Translations under genes and position numbers: made by a program | In this document: piece by piece, positions 6,517-17,312 of the stretch | How the letters are laid out: each line of letters opens with the position of its first letter | How positions within the stretch are numbered: the first letter of the stretch is position 1 | NCBI GenBank assembly: GCA_036274735.1 | Contig: DASUFD010000124.1 | Span: 25,880 to 89,879, forward strand | From: Burkholderiales bacterium | GTDB taxonomy: Bacteria > Pseudomonadota > Gammaproteobacteria > Burkholderiales > SG8-39 | Direction of reading: 5' to 3' | Length of the DNA stretch: 64,000 nucleotides | The notes under the pieces: model-generated | What the model saw: the letters and a program-made list of their open reading frames with translations, nothing else | Told to the model about the DNA's origin: nothing | Databases searched by the model: none

Positions 6517-7392
6517 ATGGCGAAAGTTGCATTCCTCGGTCTCGGCGTCATGGGCTATCCCATGGCGGGACACCTCCTGAAGAAGGGCGGCCACGACGTC
6601 ACCGTCTACAACCGCACCGCCGCCAAGGCGCAGCAATGGACGAAGGAGTACGGCGGAAAGCACGCGCCGACGCCGCGCGAAGCGGCGAAGGACTGCGACT
6701 TCGTCATGATGTGCGTCGGCAACGACGACGACGTGCGCTCGGTCGTCTATGGCGAGAACGGTGCGCTCGCGGGCATGAAGAGCGGCGCGATCCTCGTCGA
6801 CCACACCACGGCCTCGGCGATCGTTGCCAGGGAGGTTTTCCAGAAAGCAAAAGACAAGGGCATCGGCTTCGTCGACGCCCCGGTCTCGGGCGGCCAGGCG
6901 GGCGCGGTCAACGGCCAGCTCGGCATCATGTGCGGCGGCGAGGAAGCGGTGTTCGCCAAGGCGAAGCCGGTGATCGACGTGTACGCCAAGATGGCGGCGC
7001 TGATCGGCGGCCCGGGCGCTGGGCAGCTGACGAAGATGGTGAACCAGATCTGCATTGCCGGCCTGCTGCAGGGGCTCTCCGAAGGACTGGCTTTCGCCAA
7101 GAAAAGCAACTTGGACCTGGAAAAGGTGGTCTCGGTGATCTCCAAGGGCGCCGCGCAGTCCTGGCAGATGGAGAACCGCTGGAAGCAGATGAACGAGGTG
7201 AAGTTCGACGGCTTCGGCTTCGCGGTGGACTGGATGCGCAAGGACCTCGCCATCTGCCTAGAGGAGGCGCGCAAAAACGGCGCGCGCCTGCCGGTGACCG
7301 CGCTCGTCGACCAGTTCTACGGGCATGTCCAGGCGCGCGGCGGCCGGCGCTGGGACACCGCGAGCCTCATGCACCTCGTCATGAAGGATTAG
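6517..7392 (+). CDS. NAD(P)-dependent beta-hydroxyacid dehydrogenase (3-hydroxyisobutyrate/tartronate semialdehyde reductase family)
   Basis: FLGLGVMG Rossmann motif, DAPVSGG, catalytic KMVNQ, KDL motif. Confidence 0.9.
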   Translation: MAKVAFLGLGVMGYPMAGHLLKKGGHDVTVYNRTAAKAQQWTKEYGGKHAPTPREAAKDCDFVMMCVGNDDDVRSVVYGENGALAGMKSGAILVDHTTASAIVAREVFQKAKDKGIGFVDAPVSGGQAGAVNGQLGIMCGGEEAVFAKAKPVIDVYAKMAALIGGPGAGQLTKMVNQICIAGLLQGLSEGLAFAKKSNLDLEKVVSVISKGAAQSWQMENRWKQMNEVKFDGFGFAVDWMRKDLAICLEEARKNGARLPVTALVDQFYGHVQARGGRRWDTASLMHLVMKD

Positions 7393-10102
7393 CGAGCAGC
7401 GGCGCGGCGCTCAACGGCAGCGCCACGCGGAAGCAGGCGCCCGGCGCCGCGCCCCGCTCGACGAGCTCGAGCGAGCCGCCCAGGCCACGCATGATCTGCC
7501 AGCTGATGGCGAGCCCGAGCCCGGCCCCGCCGCTGCCGCTTTTCGCCTGCGCGCGGCCGCGCACGAACTTGGAGAAGATCCGCTCCCGCTCCTCGGCGGG
7601 AATGCCCGGGCCGTTGTCGGCGATCGTCACCTCGTAGCGCCCCTCGCGCACCGCGCTCGCGATGGTGACGGCGGGCGCCGGGCTGGTGTTGTACTTCACG
7701 GCGTTCGAGATGAGGTTGATGAACACCTGGCAGAGGCGGTCCTCGTTCGCCGCGACGGTCACGCCGCTCGCCCGCTCGGTACTGAGCAGCGCGACCCGCG
7801 TGCCGGCGAAGCCGCGGCACAGGCGCAGAGAGGCATCGAGCGCCGCCTCGGGATCGATGGTCTCGCGCGGCCACGGCGCTTCGCCGCGCTCGAGCAGGCT
7901 CAGGTCGAGCGTGCTGTCGAGGAGCCGCGTCAGGCGCACGCTCTCGTCGTGGATGATGCGCACGTAGCGCTGCGCGGTCCGCGGGTCGAGGTCGCGCGTC
8001 TCCATGAGAATCTGCGAGAAGGAGCGAATCGAGGTCATCGGCGTGCGCACCTCGTGGCTCACCTGGCTCAGGAAGTCGTCCTTTTCCTGGTCGAGGCGGC
8101 GCAAGCGCTCGTTGGCGTCGCGCAGCTGGCGCGCCGCGGCCTCGAGCTCGCTCGACTTCTCCTCGAGCTGGCGGCTGTGCTCGCGCATGCGCAGCGTGTC
8201 GTCGGCGATGCGCCGCAGCTCGTCGAGGCTGATGGTCTCGACCGTCACCGCCTCCGAGATCATGGTGCGCGCGGTGGCCGCCCCGACGCTGCCGGCGAGG
8301 CGCCGCTCGAGCTGGGTGATGAACGCGTCGTCGGCGATCGGCGGACCGTGCTCGAGGCCCTGCTCGTGCGCGGCGCGCTCGAAGAGCGCGCGCGCGGCGT
8401 CGGCGCCGAGGACGCGCTGCGCGAGCGCAAACAGGTGCTCGGGCGAGGCGCGGCGGCGGATCAGCCCCGCGCTCGCCTCGTCGGGGGTGCGGAACACGTC
8501 GACGAAGAGCGCGCTCTGCAGCCGCTCGATCGGCCGCGGCTCGCGCAGGAGCGAGATGCCGGCGAAGAGCAGGCAATTCGCCGAGAGGCTCCAGAAGAGC
8601 GAGTGCACGAGCGGATCGAGCCCGGCGAGCCCGAACAACGCGTGCGGACGCAGGAACGCGAGGCCGAGCGGCCCCTCGTGCAGCACGCTTGCCGAGAGCG
8701 CGACGTCCGGGCCGAGGCTCGGCAGGAAGAGGGTGTACGCCCAGAGCGCGGCGCCGGCTGCCAGCCCGGCGATCGCGCCGCCCGCGTTCGCGTTGCGCCA
8801 GAAGAGCCCGCCGACCAGGCTCGGCACGAACTGCGCCACGCCGGCGAAGGAGATGAGCCCGATCGCGGCGAGCGCATCGCCCGGGCCGCTCAGACGATAG
8901 TAGAGGAAGCCCAGCAGCAGCAGCACGGCAATGCTCACGCGCCGCGTGACGAGCAGGAAGCGGCGCATCTCCCCTGCGGCGTCGAGCGGCAGCCAGTTAA
9001 AGCGCAGGGCGAGCGGCACGACCAGGTGGTTCGAAACCATGGTGGAGAGCGCGATGCAGGCGACGATCACCATCGAGGTGGCCGAGGAGAAGCCACCGAG
9101 GAAGGCGAGCAGGGCGACGGCGTCCTGGCCCGCCCACATCGGCAGCGTCAGCACGAACATGTCCGGGTTCGAGCCCCTCGGGAGGAAGCTCAGGCCGGTG
9201 ATGGCGATCGGCAGCACGAACAGCGTGATCAGCAGCAAATAAAGCGGGAAGAGCCACGACGCGGTGCGCAGGTGGCGCTCGTCGGCGTTCTCGACCACGG
9301 TGACCTGGAACTGCCGCGGCAGGCAGAGCACCGCGACGCCGGACAGGAAGATGAGCGCCACCCAGCGCGCGCCGAACACGTCGGGCGAATGCAGCAACGC
9401 CGGTGCCCCCCGCGAGAAGCTGTCGGCCACGCCGTCGCAGATGCCGAAGACGACGAGCACGCCGACGGCGAGCAGCGCGACCAGCTTGACGACCGCCTCG
9501 ACGGCGATCGCAGCGACGACGCCGTGGTGGCGCTCCTTGGCATCGACGTTGCGCGTACCGAAGATGATGGTGAAGATCGCCATCCCGGCGGCGATCCAGA
9601 AGGCGGTATGGAAGTCGGCGCTAGCCGGCAGGCCGAGCGCGTTTTCCGGGCCCGCGGTGCTGATCACCTGGAAGCTCGTCGTCACCGCGCGCAGCTGCAG
9701 CGCGACGTACGGCGTCACGCCGATCACCGCGATCACCGTCACCAGCGCGGCGAGCGGCACGCTCTTGCCGTAGCGCGAGGAGATCATGTCGGCGATGGAA
9801 GTGATCCCCTGCGCGTGGCCGATGCGCACGAGCTTGCGCAACAGCACCCACCAGCCGGCGAACACCAGCGTGGGGCCGATGTAGATGGTCGCGAACTCCA
9901 GGCCGCCGCGCGCCGCGGAGCCAACCGCTCCGTAGAACGTCCAGGAGGTGCAGTAGATCGAGATCGAGAGGGTGTAAACGAGCGGCGAGCGGAGCCAGCC
10001 GAGACGGCCGGCGCGCGCGCGCCGATCGCCTGCGAACGCCACCGCGAAGAGCAGCGCCACGTAGGCGAGCGCGATCGGCAGGACCAGCTCGGCGGAGAGC
10101 AT
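7379..10102 (-). CDS. sodium:solute symporter (SLC5)-fused sensor histidine kinase (CrbS/CbrA-like)
   Basis: Start MLSAEL at 10102 (TAATG overlap). Polytopic N-terminus with YCTSWTFYG and LPRQFQV; STAC-like ERRLAGSVGAATAR; H-box SHEVRTP; N-box NLISNAVKY; G boxes DNGPG and GAGLGL. Confidence 0.92.
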   Translation of the reverse strand: MLSAELVLPIALAYVALLFAVAFAGDRRARAGRLGWLRSPLVYTLSISIYCTSWTFYGAVGSAARGGLEFATIYIGPTLVFAGWWVLLRKLVRIGHAQGITSIADMISSRYGKSVPLAALVTVIAVIGVTPYVALQLRAVTTSFQVISTAGPENALGLPASADFHTAFWIAAGMAIFTIIFGTRNVDAKERHHGVVAAIAVEAVVKLVALLAVGVLVVFGICDGVADSFSRGAPALLHSPDVFGARWVALIFLSGVAVLCLPRQFQVTVVENADERHLRTASWLFPLYLLLITLFVLPIAITGLSFLPRGSNPDMFVLTLPMWAGQDAVALLAFLGGFSSATSMVIVACIALSTMVSNHLVVPLALRFNWLPLDAAGEMRRFLLVTRRVSIAVLLLLGFLYYRLSGPGDALAAIGLISFAGVAQFVPSLVGGLFWRNANAGGAIAGLAAGAALWAYTLFLPSLGPDVALSASVLHEGPLGLAFLRPHALFGLAGLDPLVHSLFWSLSANCLLFAGISLLREPRPIERLQSALFVDVFRTPDEASAGLIRRRASPEHLFALAQRVLGADAARALFERAAHEQGLEHGPPIADDAFITQLERRLAGSVGAATARTMISEAVTVETISLDELRRIADDTLRMREHSRQLEEKSSELEAAARQLRDANERLRRLDQEKDDFLSQVSHEVRTPMTSIRSFSQILMETRDLDPRTAQRYVRIIHDESVRLTRLLDSTLDLSLLERGEAPWPRETIDPEAALDASLRLCRGFAGTRVALLSTERASGVTVAANEDRLCQVFINLISNAVKYNTSPAPAVTIASAVREGRYEVTIADNGPGIPAEERERIFSKFVRGRAQAKSGSGGAGLGLAISWQIMRGLGGSLELVERGAAPGACFRVALPLSAAPLLANPS

Positions 10103-10362
10103 TACGGCTCGCTCTGGCCGTCGCCCGGCGGCGCCGGCACCGCGAGCGCCCGCCCGAGGAGCGCCGCCGCGACGACCAGGCCGAGCCACACGGCGAAGAA
10201 GTAAAGCACGAGCAGCGGGACGCCGGCGACGTCGACCGGGACGGCGAAGAGCGTGATCAGCGGCGGCAGCACGAGGAAGAGGCCCGCGAGCGGCAGGAGG
10301 CGTGCCGCCTCGCGCACGCGCTGCAACCGTTCCGAGGGGTTGGTCAGCGGCTCGCTCGCCAC
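10102..10362 (-). CDS. small two-TM membrane protein coupled to the symporter-kinase
   Basis: 86 aa with two hydrophobic helices; its stop overlaps the kinase ATG. Confidence 0.75.
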   Translation of the reverse strand: MASEPLTNPSERLQRVREAARLLPLAGLFLVLPPLITLFAVPVDVAGVPLLVLYFFAVWLGLVVAAALLGRALAVPAPPGDGQSEP

Positions 10363-10776: not shown

Positions 10777-12249
10777 TCACGCGCCGACGACCGCATCCTC
10801 CTGCCGGTATGCGCAGGCGCTGCGCGGGCAGATCCGGCAATGTGCACCGACCGGCAGCGCGGGCGCGGAGGACGAGAGGTCGAGGCCGTCCCCGTATACG
10901 GTCTGGTCGGCCTGCAGCGCGTCGCAGGCGAGCATGAGAGAAGCAACGCGGCGCGGCATGGGGAAAGCCGCGCCGCGCTTCTCGACCGAGCGCGCGACGA
11001 AGAGAAAGCGCTCGCCGCCCGGGAACTCGACGAGCTGGCGGACCACCGCCGAGGACGCGTGCAGGGCCTGATAGACGGCCCACAGCGGGCAGGCACCGCC
11101 GTGGCGCGGCAGCGGCAGCCGCGCCAGCGGAAAGCGCTTGGCAACGAATCCCGAGGCGTCGACGCACATCAGGCCGAAGGCGACCCCTTCGGCGCCGGGG
11201 CGACGCAGGGCGAGCAGCCTCCGGCACACCTGCTCGATGCTCGTGTCGAAGGCATTCGCGAGCGCGTCGACGTCGTAGCGCAGCCGACGCGCGGCGGCGA
11301 GGAACGCGTCGTACGGCATCAGCACGGCGGCCGCTACGTAGCCCGAGAGCGCACGATGTGCGCGGCGTCGCGCCGCGTCGCTGCGCAGAACGGGCGCGGC
11401 CGCTTCGGCGGCGAGCGCCTGCGCCGCGATGCGCTCGGCGGCGAGGCGCGCGAGGTCGAAGAGTCCCGCTTCCGCCGACACCGCCGCGCCGAGCCCTTCC
11501 AAATAGGCCTTGAGCCGCGGCGCTTCGGCCTTGCCCTCGACGCCGGCGGCCCCGCGAACCGCCTGCGCCGCTTCCTCGAGAGCCGGGAAGTAGTAGTTAT
11601 GGTCGAGAAGAAAATCATCTACGTCTCCGGCCGGGGTGTTCGAGCGCGCACCCCCGCGGTCGCTATGAAAGAACGCCGCGAGCGCTTGCGAGATCTCGCT
11701 CAGCCGGCGGCTCTCCCCGCCGATCATGGAAACGAACCGGCGTCGCTGATCGGCGCCCAGGTCCTCGACGCTCTCCAGGATCTCCGCCGCCGAGCGGATG
11801 GAGGCGATACGCGTGAGCAGGCTGTGCACCGCGTCGGCGAGGAACGGGTCCTGGGTGAGGCGGTCGGACAGCGCGCTCATCGCGCGCCCGCGCTCGAGCC
11901 ACGCACGATGCAGCAGCACCAGCGCGCGCGCCCACGATGCCCGCTGGCCCGCAAGCTCCGCGGCGCCGGCCGCCTGCAGGCCGAGCTCGGCGAGCAGCGG
12001 CTCGGCGGCGAGCTCGGCTAGCTCCGCCATCAGGCGGCGCTCGGTCGCGCCATCGAGCTCGTCGATCGAAAGCCCGAGCGCGTCGGCGATGCGCTTGAGA
12101 AGGGCGCCGCCGATGTTGCGCTTACCCGCTTCGATGAGGTTCAGGTACGAGGCGGAGATGCCGAGCTGCGCGGAAAGGGCCGCCTGCGTAACGCCGACCG
12201 CGCGGCGGCGCTCACGGATCTTGGGTCCTACGAGGCGGGCGGGCGTCAT
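10777..12249 (-). CDS. XRE-family short-chain fatty acyl-CoA regulator (ScfR/PrpR/RamB type) with internal HisKA-like segment
   Basis: N-terminal HTH QAALSAQLGISASYLNLIEAGKR; C-terminal GGACPLW and CRICPRSACAYR. Start could be 12249 or 12267. Confidence 0.88.
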   Translation of the reverse strand: MTPARLVGPKIRERRRAVGVTQAALSAQLGISASYLNLIEAGKRNIGGALLKRIADALGLSIDELDGATERRLMAELAELAAEPLLAELGLQAAGAAELAGQRASWARALVLLHRAWLERGRAMSALSDRLTQDPFLADAVHSLLTRIASIRSAAEILESVEDLGADQRRRFVSMIGGESRRLSEISQALAAFFHSDRGGARSNTPAGDVDDFLLDHNYYFPALEEAAQAVRGAAGVEGKAEAPRLKAYLEGLGAAVSAEAGLFDLARLAAERIAAQALAAEAAAPVLRSDAARRRAHRALSGYVAAAVLMPYDAFLAAARRLRYDVDALANAFDTSIEQVCRRLLALRRPGAEGVAFGLMCVDASGFVAKRFPLARLPLPRHGGACPLWAVYQALHASSAVVRQLVEFPGGERFLFVARSVEKRGAAFPMPRRVASLMLACDALQADQTVYGDGLDLSSSAPALPVGAHCRICPRSACAYRQEDAVVGA

Positions 12250-12422
12250 GCGCGGCAGATGCTGCAATGCAAGGTCGAAAATAAACTGCCTTTGCTAAAG
12301 CGATGTGAAGGATACACAAAAATCTTTCGCTCTCTCAATGTGATGTTGCGTTCTTTACACTCGTCGGTGACCATCATTGCAAGTTGCGCCGCCGCGCAGC
12401 CCACATTCACCGAGGAGGAGTA

Positions 12423-13769
12423 ATGAGCGACATCATCAAGGATGCGCGCCGCCGCCAGATGTTGAAGGCAAGTGCGCTGCTTGGCGCCGGCATCGCCGCG
12501 CCGTCTCTTTTCGTTCCGCGCCACGCCTGGGCGGCCATGCACCCCCCGATTGGCACCTGGCCGGCCGGCGTGCAGGGCGGCACGGTCTACATCGGGGCGG
12601 CCGTTCCGCGCACCGGCACCTATGCGGTGCAGGGCGAAGACGAGCTCAAGGGCATGCAGCTCGCCGTAGAGCACATCAACCAGGGCCACGAGCTTGCGCA
12701 CAAGATCGCGCCGAAGCTGCAGAAGGGCGTGCTCGGCAAGCAGGTCGAGCTGGTCGTCGCCGACTCGGGCGCGAAGCCGAACGAGGCGGTGCAGGCGCAG
12801 CAGCGCTTCATCAACGAGAACAAGATCATGGCCATGACCGGCTCGACCTCGAGCGCGGTCGCCGTGGCGCTGAACAAGTTCGCGCAGCGCGAGAAGGTGC
12901 TCTACCTGGTGGCGATCTCCGGCTCGAACGACACCACGGGCAAGGACTGCGCGCGCTACAGCTTCCGGCAGTGCTTCTACGGCGAGACGGCGGCGAACGC
13001 GATCGGCCCGGTGCTCGTCAAGGCCTACGGCAAGAACAAGAAGGCGGCGTTCATGACGCCGGACTACACCTACGGCCATACGGTGACCAAGTCGGTCAAC
13101 GACTACCTGACCGAGCACGGCGGCTGGAAGATGGTCACGAACCAGGTCTCGCCGCTCGGTACGCAAGACTTCAGCTCATACCTCACCAACATCGCCAACT
13201 CGGGCGCCGACGTCATCGTCAACGTGAACTGGGGCCGCGACGCGGTGCTGTCCATCCAGCAGGCGAAGCAGTTCGGCTTGACGCCGCGCATGAAGATGGT
13301 GGTCCCCTACCAGATCCCGTTCCTCGCGAAGGAAACCGGCCCCGAGCTGACCGAAGGCGTCTACGCCGCCACCGACTTCTGGTGGACGCTGGAGGACAAG
13401 TTCCCGCTCGCCAAGATGTTCGTGGAGGCCTTCGACAAGAAATACGGCTACAAGCCGGAATGGGGCGCGAACAACGCGTACATGCAGTTCACGATCTGGG
13501 CGCGCATGGTCTCCGAGGCGGGCTCGTTCTACCCGCCGGACGTCATCAAGGCCTACGAGAAAGGCGAGGAGTTCGACTCGACGGTCGGCAAGGTGCACTT
13601 CCGCAAGGAGGATCACCAGCTCGTGCGCCCCGTCGTCATCGTGCGCGGCAAGTCGCCGAAGCAGATGAAGAACAAGGAGGACTACTGGGAGGTGCTCGAC
13701 GTGCTGCCCGGCGCGCCCCTCATGCAGAAGCCCGACGCGTTCGGCTGCAAGCTCGGCGACTACACCTAG
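12423..13769 (+). CDS. Liv/HAAT-family ABC transporter substrate-binding protein with Tat signal
   Basis: ATG 12423 after GAGGAGGAG; ARRRQMLK twin-arginine signal; PRTGTYA, GSTSSAVA, DYTYG motifs. Confidence 0.9.
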   Translation: MSDIIKDARRRQMLKASALLGAGIAAPSLFVPRHAWAAMHPPIGTWPAGVQGGTVYIGAAVPRTGTYAVQGEDELKGMQLAVEHINQGHELAHKIAPKLQKGVLGKQVELVVADSGAKPNEAVQAQQRFINENKIMAMTGSTSSAVAVALNKFAQREKVLYLVAISGSNDTTGKDCARYSFRQCFYGETAANAIGPVLVKAYGKNKKAAFMTPDYTYGHTVTKSVNDYLTEHGGWKMVTNQVSPLGTQDFSSYLTNIANSGADVIVNVNWGRDAVLSIQQAKQFGLTPRMKMVVPYQIPFLAKETGPELTEGVYAATDFWWTLEDKFPLAKMFVEAFDKKYGYKPEWGANNAYMQFTIWARMVSEAGSFYPPDVIKAYEKGEEFDSTVGKVHFRKEDHQLVRPVVIVRGKSPKQMKNKEDYWEVLDVLPGAPLMQKPDAFGCKLGDYT

Positions 13770-13783
13770 AAAGGCACTGACCT

Positions 13784-13856
13784 CGTCGTCCCCGCGCAGG
13801 CGGGGACCCAGTTCTGGTTTCCGAAAGACTGGGTTCCCGCTTTCGCGCGAACGACC
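13784..13856. repeat. inverted doublet of CGTC-type REP-like palindromes
   Basis: CGTCGTCCCCGCGCAGGCGGGGACCCAG plus an inverted degenerate copy GGTCGTTCGCGCGAAAGCGGGAACCCAG. Confidence 0.75.
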
Positions 13857-13874
13857 TTTGGGGGCCGTTCCCGC

Positions 13875-14750
13875 GTGATCACCTGGGGCAACTTCTTCTC
13901 GCAGCTCTTCAACGGCCTCGCGCTGGGGGCGCTGCTCGCGCTCATCAGCTCGGGGCTGACGATCATCTATGGCACGCTCGGGGTGCTGAACCTCGCGCAC
14001 GGCGCGATGTTCATGCTCGGCGGCTACGCCGGCTACGTCGCATACCAGTACACCGGCTCGTTCGTGCTCGCGGTGATCGCCGGGACCCTGTTCCTGCTGG
14101 CTGTCGGCATCGTGATGGAGCGCGTGGTCATCCGCCACTTCTACAGGCGCCCGCCCGAGGACCAGCTGCTCGTCACCTTCGGCCTCGGCATCGTCTATGT
14201 CGAGACCGTGCGCTACTTCTTCTCCAGCCTGTCGAAGATGGTGCCGGCGCCCAAGCTCTTCGCCGGGATCACCAATCTCGGCTTCATGTTCTACCCGACC
14301 TATCGCCTTGCGGTGGTCGGCATCGTCGCGGCTGCGCTGATCGCGCTCTTCCTGGTGCTGTACAAGACGCGTCTCGGCCTCATCGTGCGCGCCGGCATCG
14401 AGGACTCCGTCATGGTCGATTCGCTCGGCGTGAACGTCGACCGGGTATTCATGCTCGTCTTCGGCATCGGTGCCATGGCGGCCGGGTTCGCCGGGATCGT
14501 CAACGCGCCGGTGGTTTCCCTCGCGCCGGACATGGGCGAGGCGATCCTGGTGCAGACCTTCGTCGTGGTGGTGATCGGCGGGGTCGGCTCCTTCCCCGGC
14601 GCCGTGCTCGGCGGCCTGATCGCCGGCGAGATCATCAGCATCACCTCGATGTTCAACCCGGGCTACGCGTACGTGATGCTGTTCGCGGCGATGACGCTCG
14701 TGCTGATGCTGCGGCCGCACGGCCTCCTCGGCGTTAAAGGACGCGAATGA
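13875..14750 (+). CDS. branched-chain amino acid-type ABC permease (LivH family)
   Basis: GLTIIYGTLGVLNLAHG, TRLGLIVRA, VVVIGGVGS. Confidence 0.92.
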   Translation: MITWGNFFSQLFNGLALGALLALISSGLTIIYGTLGVLNLAHGAMFMLGGYAGYVAYQYTGSFVLAVIAGTLFLLAVGIVMERVVIRHFYRRPPEDQLLVTFGLGIVYVETVRYFFSSLSKMVPAPKLFAGITNLGFMFYPTYRLAVVGIVAAALIALFLVLYKTRLGLIVRAGIEDSVMVDSLGVNVDRVFMLVFGIGAMAAGFAGIVNAPVVSLAPDMGEAILVQTFVVVVIGGVGSFPGAVLGGLIAGEIISITSMFNPGYAYVMLFAAMTLVLMLRPHGLLGVKGRE

Positions 14751-14772
14751 CCGCCAAACGGCGAGGCCGGGA

Positions 14773-16620
14773 ATGAACGCCGACCGGCTCGGCAATACGC
14801 AGCGCCCTTTCCTCGTCGAGGCGCTCACGCTCGCCGCGCTGATCGCCGCGCCGTTCGTGCTGCCCTACCTGAACGCGGCGCCGGATACGGTCAATCGCAT
14901 CCTCGTCTGGGGCATGCTGGGCATCGGCTTCGACATCCTGTTCGGCTACACGGGGCTGCTCTCCTTCGGCCAGTCGGCGCTCTACGGCACGGGCGGCATG
15001 GTCGCGGCCTACCTGCTCGTCACGGCGGGCTTCCCGCACGTCGTGACGGCGCTTCTCATCGGCATGGTCGTCGCCGCTGTGGTCGGCTACCTGGTCGGGC
15101 TGGTCGCGCTGCGCCGCACAGGGATCTACTTCGCCATGATCACGGTGGCGATCGCCGAGGTCTTCTTCTTCATCGAGTTCAATCCGCTCTCGCAATGGAC
15201 GGGCGGCGAGAACGGCCTGCCGGGCGTGCCGGCGCCGAGCCTGCACCTGGGCTTCACCACGCTGCGGTTCACGCGCGGCTGGGACCTCTATCCCTTCCTC
15301 GCGTTCTTCTACTTCATCGGCATCGTCATCGCGCTGCGCATCGTGCGCTCGCCGGTCGGCGCGATCTTTCGGGCGATCCGCGAGAATCCCCTGCGCGCGG
15401 CCGCCGTGGGGCACAACATCCACGCCTACAAGCTCACGGCCTTCGTCATTGCCGCAGCCTACGCCGGCCTCGCCGGCGGCCTGCTCGGTGTGATGCAGGG
15501 GTTCATGCCGCCGGATGCCTTCATGTTCGAGACCTCCGGGCAGCTCATCATGCAGACCGCGATCGGCGGCATCGGCACGCTGTTCGGTCCGCTGGCGGGC
15601 GCGGCGGTGTGGCTCTTCCTGCAGGATTTCCTGCAGTCCACGCTCAACCTCGGCGCGACCTGGAAGCTCGTGCTCGGCGTCATCTTCGTGCTTCTCGTGT
15701 TCTTCCTGCGCCAGGGCATCATCGGCGGCATTCGCGACCTCGTCGCGCTCGTCCGCGGCAAGGCCGCCGCCCGGCGCGCGGCGCAGGCGCCGCCCGCGCC
15801 GCGCGCCCCTGCCGCGCCGGCGCATCGCAGTCCCGCGCATCGCTTCTCCGGACCGATCCTCGAAGCGCGCGGCCTCTCCAAGCACTACGGCGGCGTCACG
15901 GCGAACGCCGACATCGAATTCACGGTAAACGCCGGCGAGCTGCACGGCATCATCGGCCCGAACGGCGCCGGCAAGACGACGCTCTTCAAGATGCTCACCT
16001 GCGAGGTGCCGCCGAGCTCGGGCACGATCCGCTTCGAGGGTCGCGACATCACCGGCATGAGCGTCACCGACGTCTGCCAGCTTGGCCTCACCAAGAGCTA
16101 CCAGATCAACCAGCTCTTCAACCGCCTGACCGTGCGCGAGAACATCATCATCGCCGCGCTCGCCGAGCTGCGCGGCAAGTTCCGCCTCGATCTGATGCGC
16201 AGTCTCTCGAGCGTGCCCGGGCTGCGCGAGCACGTCGACCACAGCCTCTCCCTGGTCGACCTCGGCGCGCGGCGGGACACGCCGGTCTCGCAGCTCGCCT
16301 ACGGAGAGAAGCGCCGCCTGGAGATCGGCTTGGCGCTCGCCGCTTCGCCCACCCTGCTCCTCCTCGACGAGCCGCTCGCCGGCATGAGCCCGCGCGAGCG
16401 GACCGAAACCGTGCGGCTGCTGAAGTCGATCGCCCAGGGGCGCACGATGATCGTCATCGACCACGACATGGACGCGCTCTTCGAGCTCGCCGAGCGCGTC
16501 ACCGTCATGCACCAGGGGCGCGTCCTCACCGAGGGCACGCCCGAGGAGGTCAAAAGCAACGCGGAGGTGCAGGAAGCCTACCTGGGCGGCGTGCACGAGT
16601 CGGCGGAAAAGGTCGCATGA
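14773..16620 (+). CDS. fused LivM-type permease / LivG-type ATP-binding protein
   Basis: GYTGLLSFGQ and TGGENG permease motifs; Pro/Ala linker; GPNGAGKT, LAYGEKR, LLLLDEP. Confidence 0.92.
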   Translation: MNADRLGNTQRPFLVEALTLAALIAAPFVLPYLNAAPDTVNRILVWGMLGIGFDILFGYTGLLSFGQSALYGTGGMVAAYLLVTAGFPHVVTALLIGMVVAAVVGYLVGLVALRRTGIYFAMITVAIAEVFFFIEFNPLSQWTGGENGLPGVPAPSLHLGFTTLRFTRGWDLYPFLAFFYFIGIVIALRIVRSPVGAIFRAIRENPLRAAAVGHNIHAYKLTAFVIAAAYAGLAGGLLGVMQGFMPPDAFMFETSGQLIMQTAIGGIGTLFGPLAGAAVWLFLQDFLQSTLNLGATWKLVLGVIFVLLVFFLRQGIIGGIRDLVALVRGKAAARRAAQAPPAPRAPAAPAHRSPAHRFSGPILEARGLSKHYGGVTANADIEFTVNAGELHGIIGPNGAGKTTLFKMLTCEVPPSSGTIRFEGRDITGMSVTDVCQLGLTKSYQINQLFNRLTVRENIIIAALAELRGKFRLDLMRSLSSVPGLREHVDHSLSLVDLGARRDTPVSQLAYGEKRRLEIGLALAASPTLLLLDEPLAGMSPRERTETVRLLKSIAQGRTMIVIDHDMDALFELAERVTVMHQGRVLTEGTPEEVKSNAEVQEAYLGGVHESAEKVA

Positions 16621-17312
16621 GCCTGCTCGAAGTCGACCGCCTCAACAGCTACTACGGCGACTCGCACATCCTCTTCGACGTCGCGCTGCGCGTCGAGAAG
16701 AACGAGGTCGTCGCGCTCCTCGGCCGCAACGGCGCGGGCAAGAGCACGACGCTGAAGAGCCTGATGGGCGTCGTGACCCCCCGCACCGGCTCCGTGCGCC
16801 TCGACGGCCACGAGCTCGCCGGGCGCAAGAGCCACGCCATCGCCCGCGCCGGCATGCAGCTCGTGCACGAAGACCGGCGGATCTTCAGCCTGAACGTCGA
16901 GGAGAACCTCGTCCTCGCCGGCCTCACCGCGCCCCGGAGATGGCCGCTCGAGCGCATCTACGAGATGTTCCCGCGCTTGCGGGAGCGGCGAGCGAGCCGC
17001 GGCACCGACCTCTCCGGCGGCGAGCAGCAGATGCTCGCGATCGCCCGCGCCCTCATCCGCGACCCGAAGATCATCCTCCTCGACGAGCCCTTCGAAGGCC
17101 TCGCGCCGACGATCGTCCGCTACCTGATGGACGCCTGCCGCGAGCTCGTCGCCGCCGGCCAGACGATCGTCATCGTCGAGCAGAACATCGCCGCCACCCT
17201 CGCCCTCGCGAGCCGCGCCTACATCATCAACAACGGCCACATCGTGCACGAGGGACCCGCCTCGGAGATCCGCGGCAAGCCCGAGGTGCTGCAGCGCTAT
17301 CTAGGCGTCTAG
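16617..17312 (+). CDS. LivF-type ABC ATP-binding protein
   Basis: ATG 16617 overlapping the upstream TGA; GRNGAGKST, LSGGEQQ, ILLDEP. Confidence 0.93.
   Translation: MSLLEVDRLNSYYGDSHILFDVALRVEKNEVVALLGRNGAGKSTTLKSLMGVVTPRTGSVRLDGHELAGRKSHAIARAGMQLVHEDRRIFSLNVEENLVLAGLTAPRRWPLERIYEMFPRLRERRASRGTDLSGGEQQMLAIARALIRDPKIILLDEPFEGLAPTIVRYLMDACRELVAAGQTIVIVEQNIAATLALASRAYIINNGHIVHEGPASEIRGKPEVLQRYLGV

Follow-up and report, generated by a model that had tools for sequence, protein, structure and literature searches.

To our knowledge, the route from single-domain receivers to an output is usually unknown. Among described regulators, the closest to the protein considered here are PrpR of M. tuberculosis (6cyy/6cz6), RamB and PccR, with which it has in common an HTH, a DII, a DIII-GAF core and four Fe-S cysteines. 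It differs from all three in about 65 DHp residues that lie between DII and helix alpha1, in the partial loss of its CoA-pocket residues, and in an operon that also holds a receiver and a histidine kinase. For PrpR, it was proposed that the acyl-CoA signal is relayed by movement of helix alpha1 (PMC6765138). The Paracoccus ScfR protein Pden_1785 is reported to cluster with two-component genes, in a paper whose main text contains neither 'histidine' nor 'domain' (PMC10370305), and a search of mostly openly accessible literature returned no published description of a DHp in an ScfR regulator.

For the kinase and the receiver, the nearest described systems are CrbS/CrbR, CbrA/CbrB and RpuS/R, which resemble the locus in their transporter-like sensor, their upstream small membrane protein and their link to acs or carboxylate uptake. 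Their response regulators, however, bind DNA (LuxR or sigma-54 type), whereas a Pfam scan of the kinase studied here found neither a PAS nor a receiver domain, the receiver is a protein of its own, and the DNA-binding function resides in another protein, the ScfR regulator. ChpT and Spo0B offer another comparison: both have a His-bearing DHp without kinase activity that is fed by a receiver, retain a remnant of the CA fold, and hand the phosphate on to a second receiver. Unlike them, the regulator has no CA remnant, and its usual locus has no second receiver. In DivL of Caulobacter, a kinase core serves as input and senses the phosphorylated form of a single-domain receiver, DivK; DivL keeps PAS and CA, has Tyr in place of the His, is described as being without phosphatase activity, and controls a kinase (PMC4211667). 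The regulator, in contrast, carries a bare hairpin, usually with the His, inside a DNA-binding protein, and it differs at +3 and +12 (offsets are counted from the His), residues that matter for DivK binding by DivL (PMC4211667). With its His present and CA absent, the window regulator is not of the DivL type, in which the His is replaced and CA retained. Tyr does replace the His in 5 of 127 members of the family, and the comparison might best be taken as an analogy of working principle only.

The features found in the window, that is, the whole stretch of 64,000 nucleotides analysed here, are collected in Table 1. We conclude that the architecture is real, old and widespread: a subfamily of ScfR regulators with a captured DHp that stands beside a transporter-kinase and a lone receiver. 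The subfamily is likely, as a predicted wiring, to be connected to this kinase and receiver through the captured DHp.

Table 1. Features of the regulator locus in the window.
Feature	Coordinates	Strand	Remarks
ScfR/PrpR-family regulator, 490 aa	10777..12249	-	order: XRE HTH, linker, DHp insert, DIII/GAF-like core, Fe-S cysteines; alternative start at TTG 12267 possible
PF01381 match in regulator	12055..12219	-	E 2.6e-14
DHp-like helical hairpin insert, ~residues 134-197 of regulator	11659..11850	-	
Regulator His142 and Thr146 (+4)	11812..11826	-	His codon 11826-11824, Thr codon 11814-11812; His/Thr pair as in HisKA phosphatase chemistry
Four predicted [4Fe-4S] ligands of regulator	10813..11091	-	Cys387 and C-x2-C-x4-C (471, 474, 479)
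Single-domain receiver, 122 aa	10367..10735	-	PF00072 sole domain; phospho-acceptor Asp53 at 10579-10577
Hydrophobic 86-aa protein	10102..10362	-	stop overlaps kinase start
SLC5-STAC transporter-like histidine kinase, 907 aa	7379..10102	-	HisKA and HATPase_c matches
Divergent intergenic region	12250..12383	.	PhaR-type box 12262-12272; 3-mismatch copy of family palindrome 12304-12318
LIV/Urt-type ABC transporter operon	12384..17312	+	binding protein, permease, permease-ATPase, ATPase; divergent from regulator

The N-terminal part of the window kinase resembles the SLC5-STAC part of CbrA (PDB 10ED, E 8.5e-71), which places it among the SLC5-STAC sensors, and both its H-box and its ATPase domain are intact. 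Pfam returned no DNA-binding domain in the 122-aa receiver, which separates it from the CrbS/R and CbrA/B type with its DNA-binding response regulator. The receivers are canonical: Asp53 and Lys105 occur in all 95 that were aligned, and helix 1 and the KPF loop are strongly kept in these rows. The 86-aa protein is likely a CbrX-like membrane hairpin, judging from its position and hydrophobicity (for CbrX, see PMC13022988), and its homologues sit between receiver and kinase in many loci. A 3-hydroxyisobutyrate-dehydrogenase-like gene (window 6517-7392) is convergent with the kinase, the stop regions overlapping; since it is near only one other locus among those shown, it is probably outside the regulator-receiver-kinase module.

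The regulator matches Pfam HTH_3, Peptidase_M78 and ScfRs, all above cut-off, which is the domain set of ScfR/IsaR proteins, and its predicted model (pLDDT 91.8) matches PrpR 6cz6 (E 8e-19, rmsd 2.8). At 250.5 bits against the RamB equivalog NF038139, for which at least 700 are required, it does not count as a RamB. The cysteines that correspond to the Fe-S ligands of PrpR (PMC6765138), C-x2-C-x4-C and a fourth Cys, are all present in the window protein and are kept in 117-118 of 121 loci, the remainder being gaps. The CoA pocket has fared differently. Among the residues equivalent to PrpR F240, H319, R338, K347 and K217, the window regulator keeps F and K347; H319 is replaced by R and R338 by C, and about 23 DIII profile positions, the stretch that holds K217, are absent (11460-11520); 43 of the 121 loci likewise have gaps in the vicinity. 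Across loci H319 is found in 49/121, R338 in 60/121 and K347 in 53/121, against 27-28 of 28 canonical rows, whereas 119 close homologues of the window regulator mostly keep them (H 98, R 112, K 90). By these alignments, the pocket is relaxed across the loci.

It had been proposed in an earlier note on this DNA that the regulator carries a copy of the neighbouring kinase's HisKA/DHp domain. The comparison behind this proposal is reproducible: regulator 11850-11701 and kinase 8080-7931 translate exactly as quoted and align without gaps at 20/50 identical positions, compared with a mean of 3.8 and a maximum of 14 in 100,000 shuffles. The His codons, CAC at 11826-11824 in the regulator and 8056-8054 in the kinase, are where they were said to be; the residue after the regulator's His is indeed Ser, and Pfam finds no HATPase domain in that protein. 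When the full proteins are compared by BLASTP, the sole significant stretch is 23/69 residues long (E 3e-7). The HisKA profile does match the regulator (E 2.8e-4), although at 21.3 bits the match stays below the 26.9 cut-off; four of five relatives scanned exceed it (32.9-41.7 bits), and the fifth, L047, gives no match. A precomputed HisKA label is borne by at least 10 of 110 listed homologues and by one ScfR cluster in the protein Atlas, so the DHp-ScfR architecture is already visible in databases. Moreover, a 14-row profile of the insert picks out HK853 (E 4.3e-4), the two His residues being aligned. Residues 68-215 of the regulator are predicted to form a long helix, a kink and a hairpin, and the top Foldseek matches of this hairpin, modelled as a monomer, are kinase DHps (rmsd ~2 A over 71 residues, E 0.065 or weaker), so the segment does model as a DHp-like hairpin. 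The view that the segment is a DHp homologue of the window kinase's family is thus supported.

Whether it is a copy of the neighbour itself is a separate matter. In this genome, an insert profile built without the window scores 88 bits with the regulator, 51 with the cognate kinase, 47 with a paralogous SLC5 kinase, 32 with an exonuclease-fused pseudokinase and 14 with the next ordinary kinase. In a tree of 96 DHp segments (58 columns, rows thinned by identity, midpoint root, support rough and bootstrap not settled), 37 inserts form one clade (99/97) within the SLC5-kinase group (95/94), nested among transporter-kinases of the CbrA/CrbS type, and the window insert is not sister to the window kinase. 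The kinase-family homology claimed in the earlier note therefore stands, but its 'copy of the neighbouring kinase' does not: the tree and the DNA identity of the two 50-residue segments (79/150, 53%) lead us to reject a recent duplication from that gene. As the inserts form a single clade inside the SLC5-kinase group, with the window's insert apart from its own kinase, the tree has the insert as one old capture from the SLC5-type kinase family. Of 164 regulator rows (the best 150 representatives at 50% identity, 13 genome hits and the query), 128 have the insert, 28 canonical ScfR proteins cleanly lack it and 8 are fragments. Profile positions 57-132 and 200-510 align with PrpR and positions 133-199 are unmatched, which puts the insert of ~65 residues, by alignment, between DII and helix alpha1 of DIII.

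The regulator has also kept its company. We collected 121 loci, namely the window, 40 of 43 hits in one class and 80 further matches, the best among at least 591; because they include kin, counts over them are not independent. Among the 99 loci with at least 5 kb downstream, receiver and kinase are both present in 81, the receiver in 83 and neither in 16, and the receiver follows the regulator directly in 78, which bears out the view that lone receiver and kinase travel with the regulator. Fifteen of the 16 partnerless genomes hold receiver and kinase elsewhere, 14 of them with the receiver beside such a kinase (one, G676, with the paralogue's gene order and a weaker receiver) and G534 with both but apart; in G685 neither was found elsewhere. 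The regulator occurs in 43 of 401 alphaproteobacterial genomes sampled, all 43 of which have the kinase, and nine more of the 401 have a kinase match without the regulator. In the window's own class it turned up in 3 of another 400 genomes, these three also giving a further match in a long frame (a match only). All 40 relatives that were screened lacked it; 24 of them share the genus, and many of the genomes are incomplete. One of 120 listed homologues, P0024, is a 615-aa regulator with a C-terminal receiver fusion; we set it aside as evidence, as it could be an assembly frameshift.

What the insert might do is suggested by its residues. In HisKA kinases, E+1 is reported to be needed for autokinase activity only and T/N+4 for phosphatase activity (PMC3510030), the His and Thr positioning the catalytic water of the latter reaction (PMC5727384, PMC7005713); H260 and T264 allow the DHp of HK853, even in isolation, to bind and dephosphorylate its receiver (PMC5727384). 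The window insert has H142 and T146, with Ser at +1 and Arg at +5. Over 128 diverse members (127 for the His and +4 counts), H is found in 87%, R+10 in 88%, S+11 in 92%, I+15 in 99%, F+30 in 96% and L+41 in 98%, whereas E+1 (28%), R+3 (14%), P+5 (0%) and F+12 (22%), each at 98-100% in 87 kinases, have largely gone. The His, on whose conservation the earlier proposal depended, is kept in 118/120 close homologues, 111/127 diverse members and 115/121 loci. T/S+4 is present in 116/127, that is, in 105/111 members with the His and 11/16 without it, and its loss is tied to that of the His (Fisher p 0.005, kin not being independent). In the 16 members that have replaced the His (Tyr in the five noted above, Phe in four, Gln in two, and others), the rest of the hairpin is kept. 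Because the His/T+4 pair persists while E+1, R+3, P+5 and the ATPase domain are lost, the insert looks, from its residues, kinase-dead but phosphatase-shaped.

We propose, with a probability of about one half, that the phosphorylated receiver docks on the regulator's hairpin and switches its DNA binding allosterically. The transporter-like kinase would likely sense a small carboxylate-type solute, given CrbS/CbrA and the nearby acs, and would phosphorylate Asp53 of the receiver, all catalytic residues being intact. The output-less receiver would then bind the hairpin, and since the insert adjoins helix alpha1, the proposed carrier of the acyl-CoA signal in PrpR, docking could be passed through this helix to the HTH. 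Readout of the phosphoryl group would fall to the His/Thr+4 pair, which might also reset the signal by slow dephosphorylation. By synteny, the likely output would be the ABC uptake operon that diverges from the regulator and frequently has acs behind it.

The match between the docking surfaces of regulator and kinase is incomplete. Positions +11 and +15, the counterparts of specificity residues 271 and 275 in HK853 (PDB 4jas title), carry the residue of the regulator's own kinase in 71/81 and 75/81 loci, respectively; the figures are 3/81 for +3, 18/81 for +8, 10/81 for +12 and 16/81 for +36, and we count the differences at +3 and +12 against the docking model. The window regulator shares with its kinase three of the five HK853 rewiring positions and, among the DivL-DivK binding positions +3, +7, +12 and +29, only +29. 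Docking residues are, on this evidence, only partly shared, and the kept hydrophobic residues could be explained by the four-helix fold alone. Covariation between proteins over 81 loci (~44 effective) gave a mean z of 0.03 at the expected regulator-receiver interface and only 0.13 in the kinase-receiver positive control, too little for the method to speak for or against docking.

The first alternative is a His-Asp-His relay, in which phosphate passes from the kinase to the receiver and on to His142, the phospho-His switching DNA binding; we regard it as possible, though rather unlikely. The His is kept across close, locus and diverse sets while +1 and +5 vary freely, and at 87-95% it is more conserved than pure allostery needs, DivL and the exonuclease pseudokinase (His in 0/120) having lost it. 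The receiver is catalytically intact, and loss of E+1 removes autokinase activity but, in what PMC3510030 reports, is not shown to block transfer. Against a relay, the kinase His is invariant in 87 rows, compared with the 16/127 replacements in regulators, and regulators that lack it keep their partners: in the six His-less loci, the receiver is in the locus in three, and receiver and kinase are elsewhere in the genome in the other three. In addition, DivL Y550H was reported to be unlabelled by DivK~P without ATP (PMC4211667), and the tendency of His and T+4 to be lost together is in keeping with phosphatase-type use. Of the two options raised in the earlier note, the data lean to an allosteric or phosphatase-type readout rather than a relay, as these His replacements leave the hairpin otherwise intact. 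If the relay were nevertheless true, an outside carboxylate signal and the inside CoA pool would be integrated in one Fe-S/acyl-CoA regulator.

A second alternative, which we consider unlikely, holds that the hairpin serves dimerisation only, or keeps the regulator at the membrane by pairing with the kinase DHp, with the receiver acting elsewhere. The best-kept positions are those of the core (I+9, L+16, F+30, L+41), and Arg+3 and Phe+12 have disappeared. Taken over the full hairpin, a regulator resembles its cognate kinase more than it does non-cognate kinases (z 5.1 for 81 loci, 4.0 for 22 representatives). The resemblance lies mostly in the loop, helix 2, +6 and +13 and not at the docking positions; at specificity positions cognate pairs have none in excess (p 0.51), which counts against docking. 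An origin of the resemblance in composition bias was largely rejected by offset controls (z at most 1.8 for 81 loci, up to 2.5 for 22 representatives). However, the excess falls to p 0.055 once five representatives of kinase-like early branches are dropped; moreover, the His, T/S+4, S+11 and I+15 are kept as well as the core, and an output-less receiver lies directly downstream in most loci.

It is more doubtful still that the flow is reversed, the hairpin acting, under control of a metabolite, as a phosphatase or sink by which the phospho-receiver is tuned for another target, while DNA binding answers only to acyl-CoA. The kept H/T+4 pair, the CoA pocket of the close homologues and the other DHp-like proteins at some loci are consistent with it, but the pocket is relaxed across the 121 loci and altered in the window protein, and another receiver target is absent from most loci among the genes screened. 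Finally, a neutral relic of a fusion accident, to which the sub-threshold HisKA score of the window regulator and the patchy distribution (0/40 relatives) might point, is highly improbable in view of the single origin, the full length and the strong position-specific conservation across members less than 50% identical.

As to the target of the regulator, a binding-protein gene is divergent from it in 95 of 106 loci with at least 2 kb upstream, acs is within reach in 29/90, and from this synteny the ABC transporter operon is likely what it controls. In three of the 106 (L133, L163 and L086) the regulator is divergent from an actP-type symporter cluster rather than an ABC operon, which indicates a role in carboxylate uptake. 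A palindrome, TGT(A/C)AA-N3-TT(T/G)ACA, is present upstream with at most two mismatches in 70/96 regions, against 2.7 in mononucleotide shuffles; the window copy has three mismatches, a level reached by 25/96 shuffles. The family palindrome, weak in the window, may be an operator or a pair of back-to-back -35 boxes of divergent promoters, as its halves presumably fit the -35 consensus; for both reasons we set it aside as a proven operator. A TGC-N3-GCA box, which matches the PhaR motif (PMC12542648), is found in 49/96 upstream regions, against 5.8 in shuffles.

If the docking model is right, the family would provide a concrete answer to the question of lone-receiver output, a transcription factor having apparently acquired the hairpin on which the receiver docks in the kinase. 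A DHp, normally an output, would here act as an input, inside a DNA-binding protein, and this would explain how carbon uptake is controlled by CrbS/CbrA-type sensors without a DNA-binding response regulator in alpha- and some beta/gammaproteobacteria. The natural variants with His replaced by Tyr, Phe or Gln, and those with a degenerate CoA pocket, would form a series by which relay, phosphatase and allosteric models could be separated.

Other DHp-like proteins were met along the way. At L001:7624-12916 (G000:C107), the paralogous SLC5 kinase and a lone receiver stand in an acs/actP-type cluster, followed by a protein annotated as 'DNA polymerase III epsilon' that consists of a PAS, a His-less DHp, a degenerate CA-like part and an intact DEDDh exonuclease, and then by a CBS-domain protein. 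In its 120 homologues the His position is A, G, T or S, while R+3, P+5, R+10 and E+14 are kept, and it flanks the kinase in 6 of 9 regulator-less genomes fetched. This exonuclease pseudokinase is a candidate second output for the lone receiver; its value as proof of an allosteric readout is weakened by N, A and N at +8, +11 and +15, unlike the kinase. Proteins of ~205 aa, HisKA-like at the N-terminus (Pfam 17-28 bits) but without the His, and with no domain assigned to the C-terminal part, lie at the end of the ABC operon at L061:1328-1960, L063:16880-17500 and L065:16974-17585. Beside SLC5 kinases, at L175:7054-8202 and L178:13061-14011, there are soluble HisKA plus HATPase proteins that lack the His and whose sequences closely resemble the core of the SLC5 kinase.
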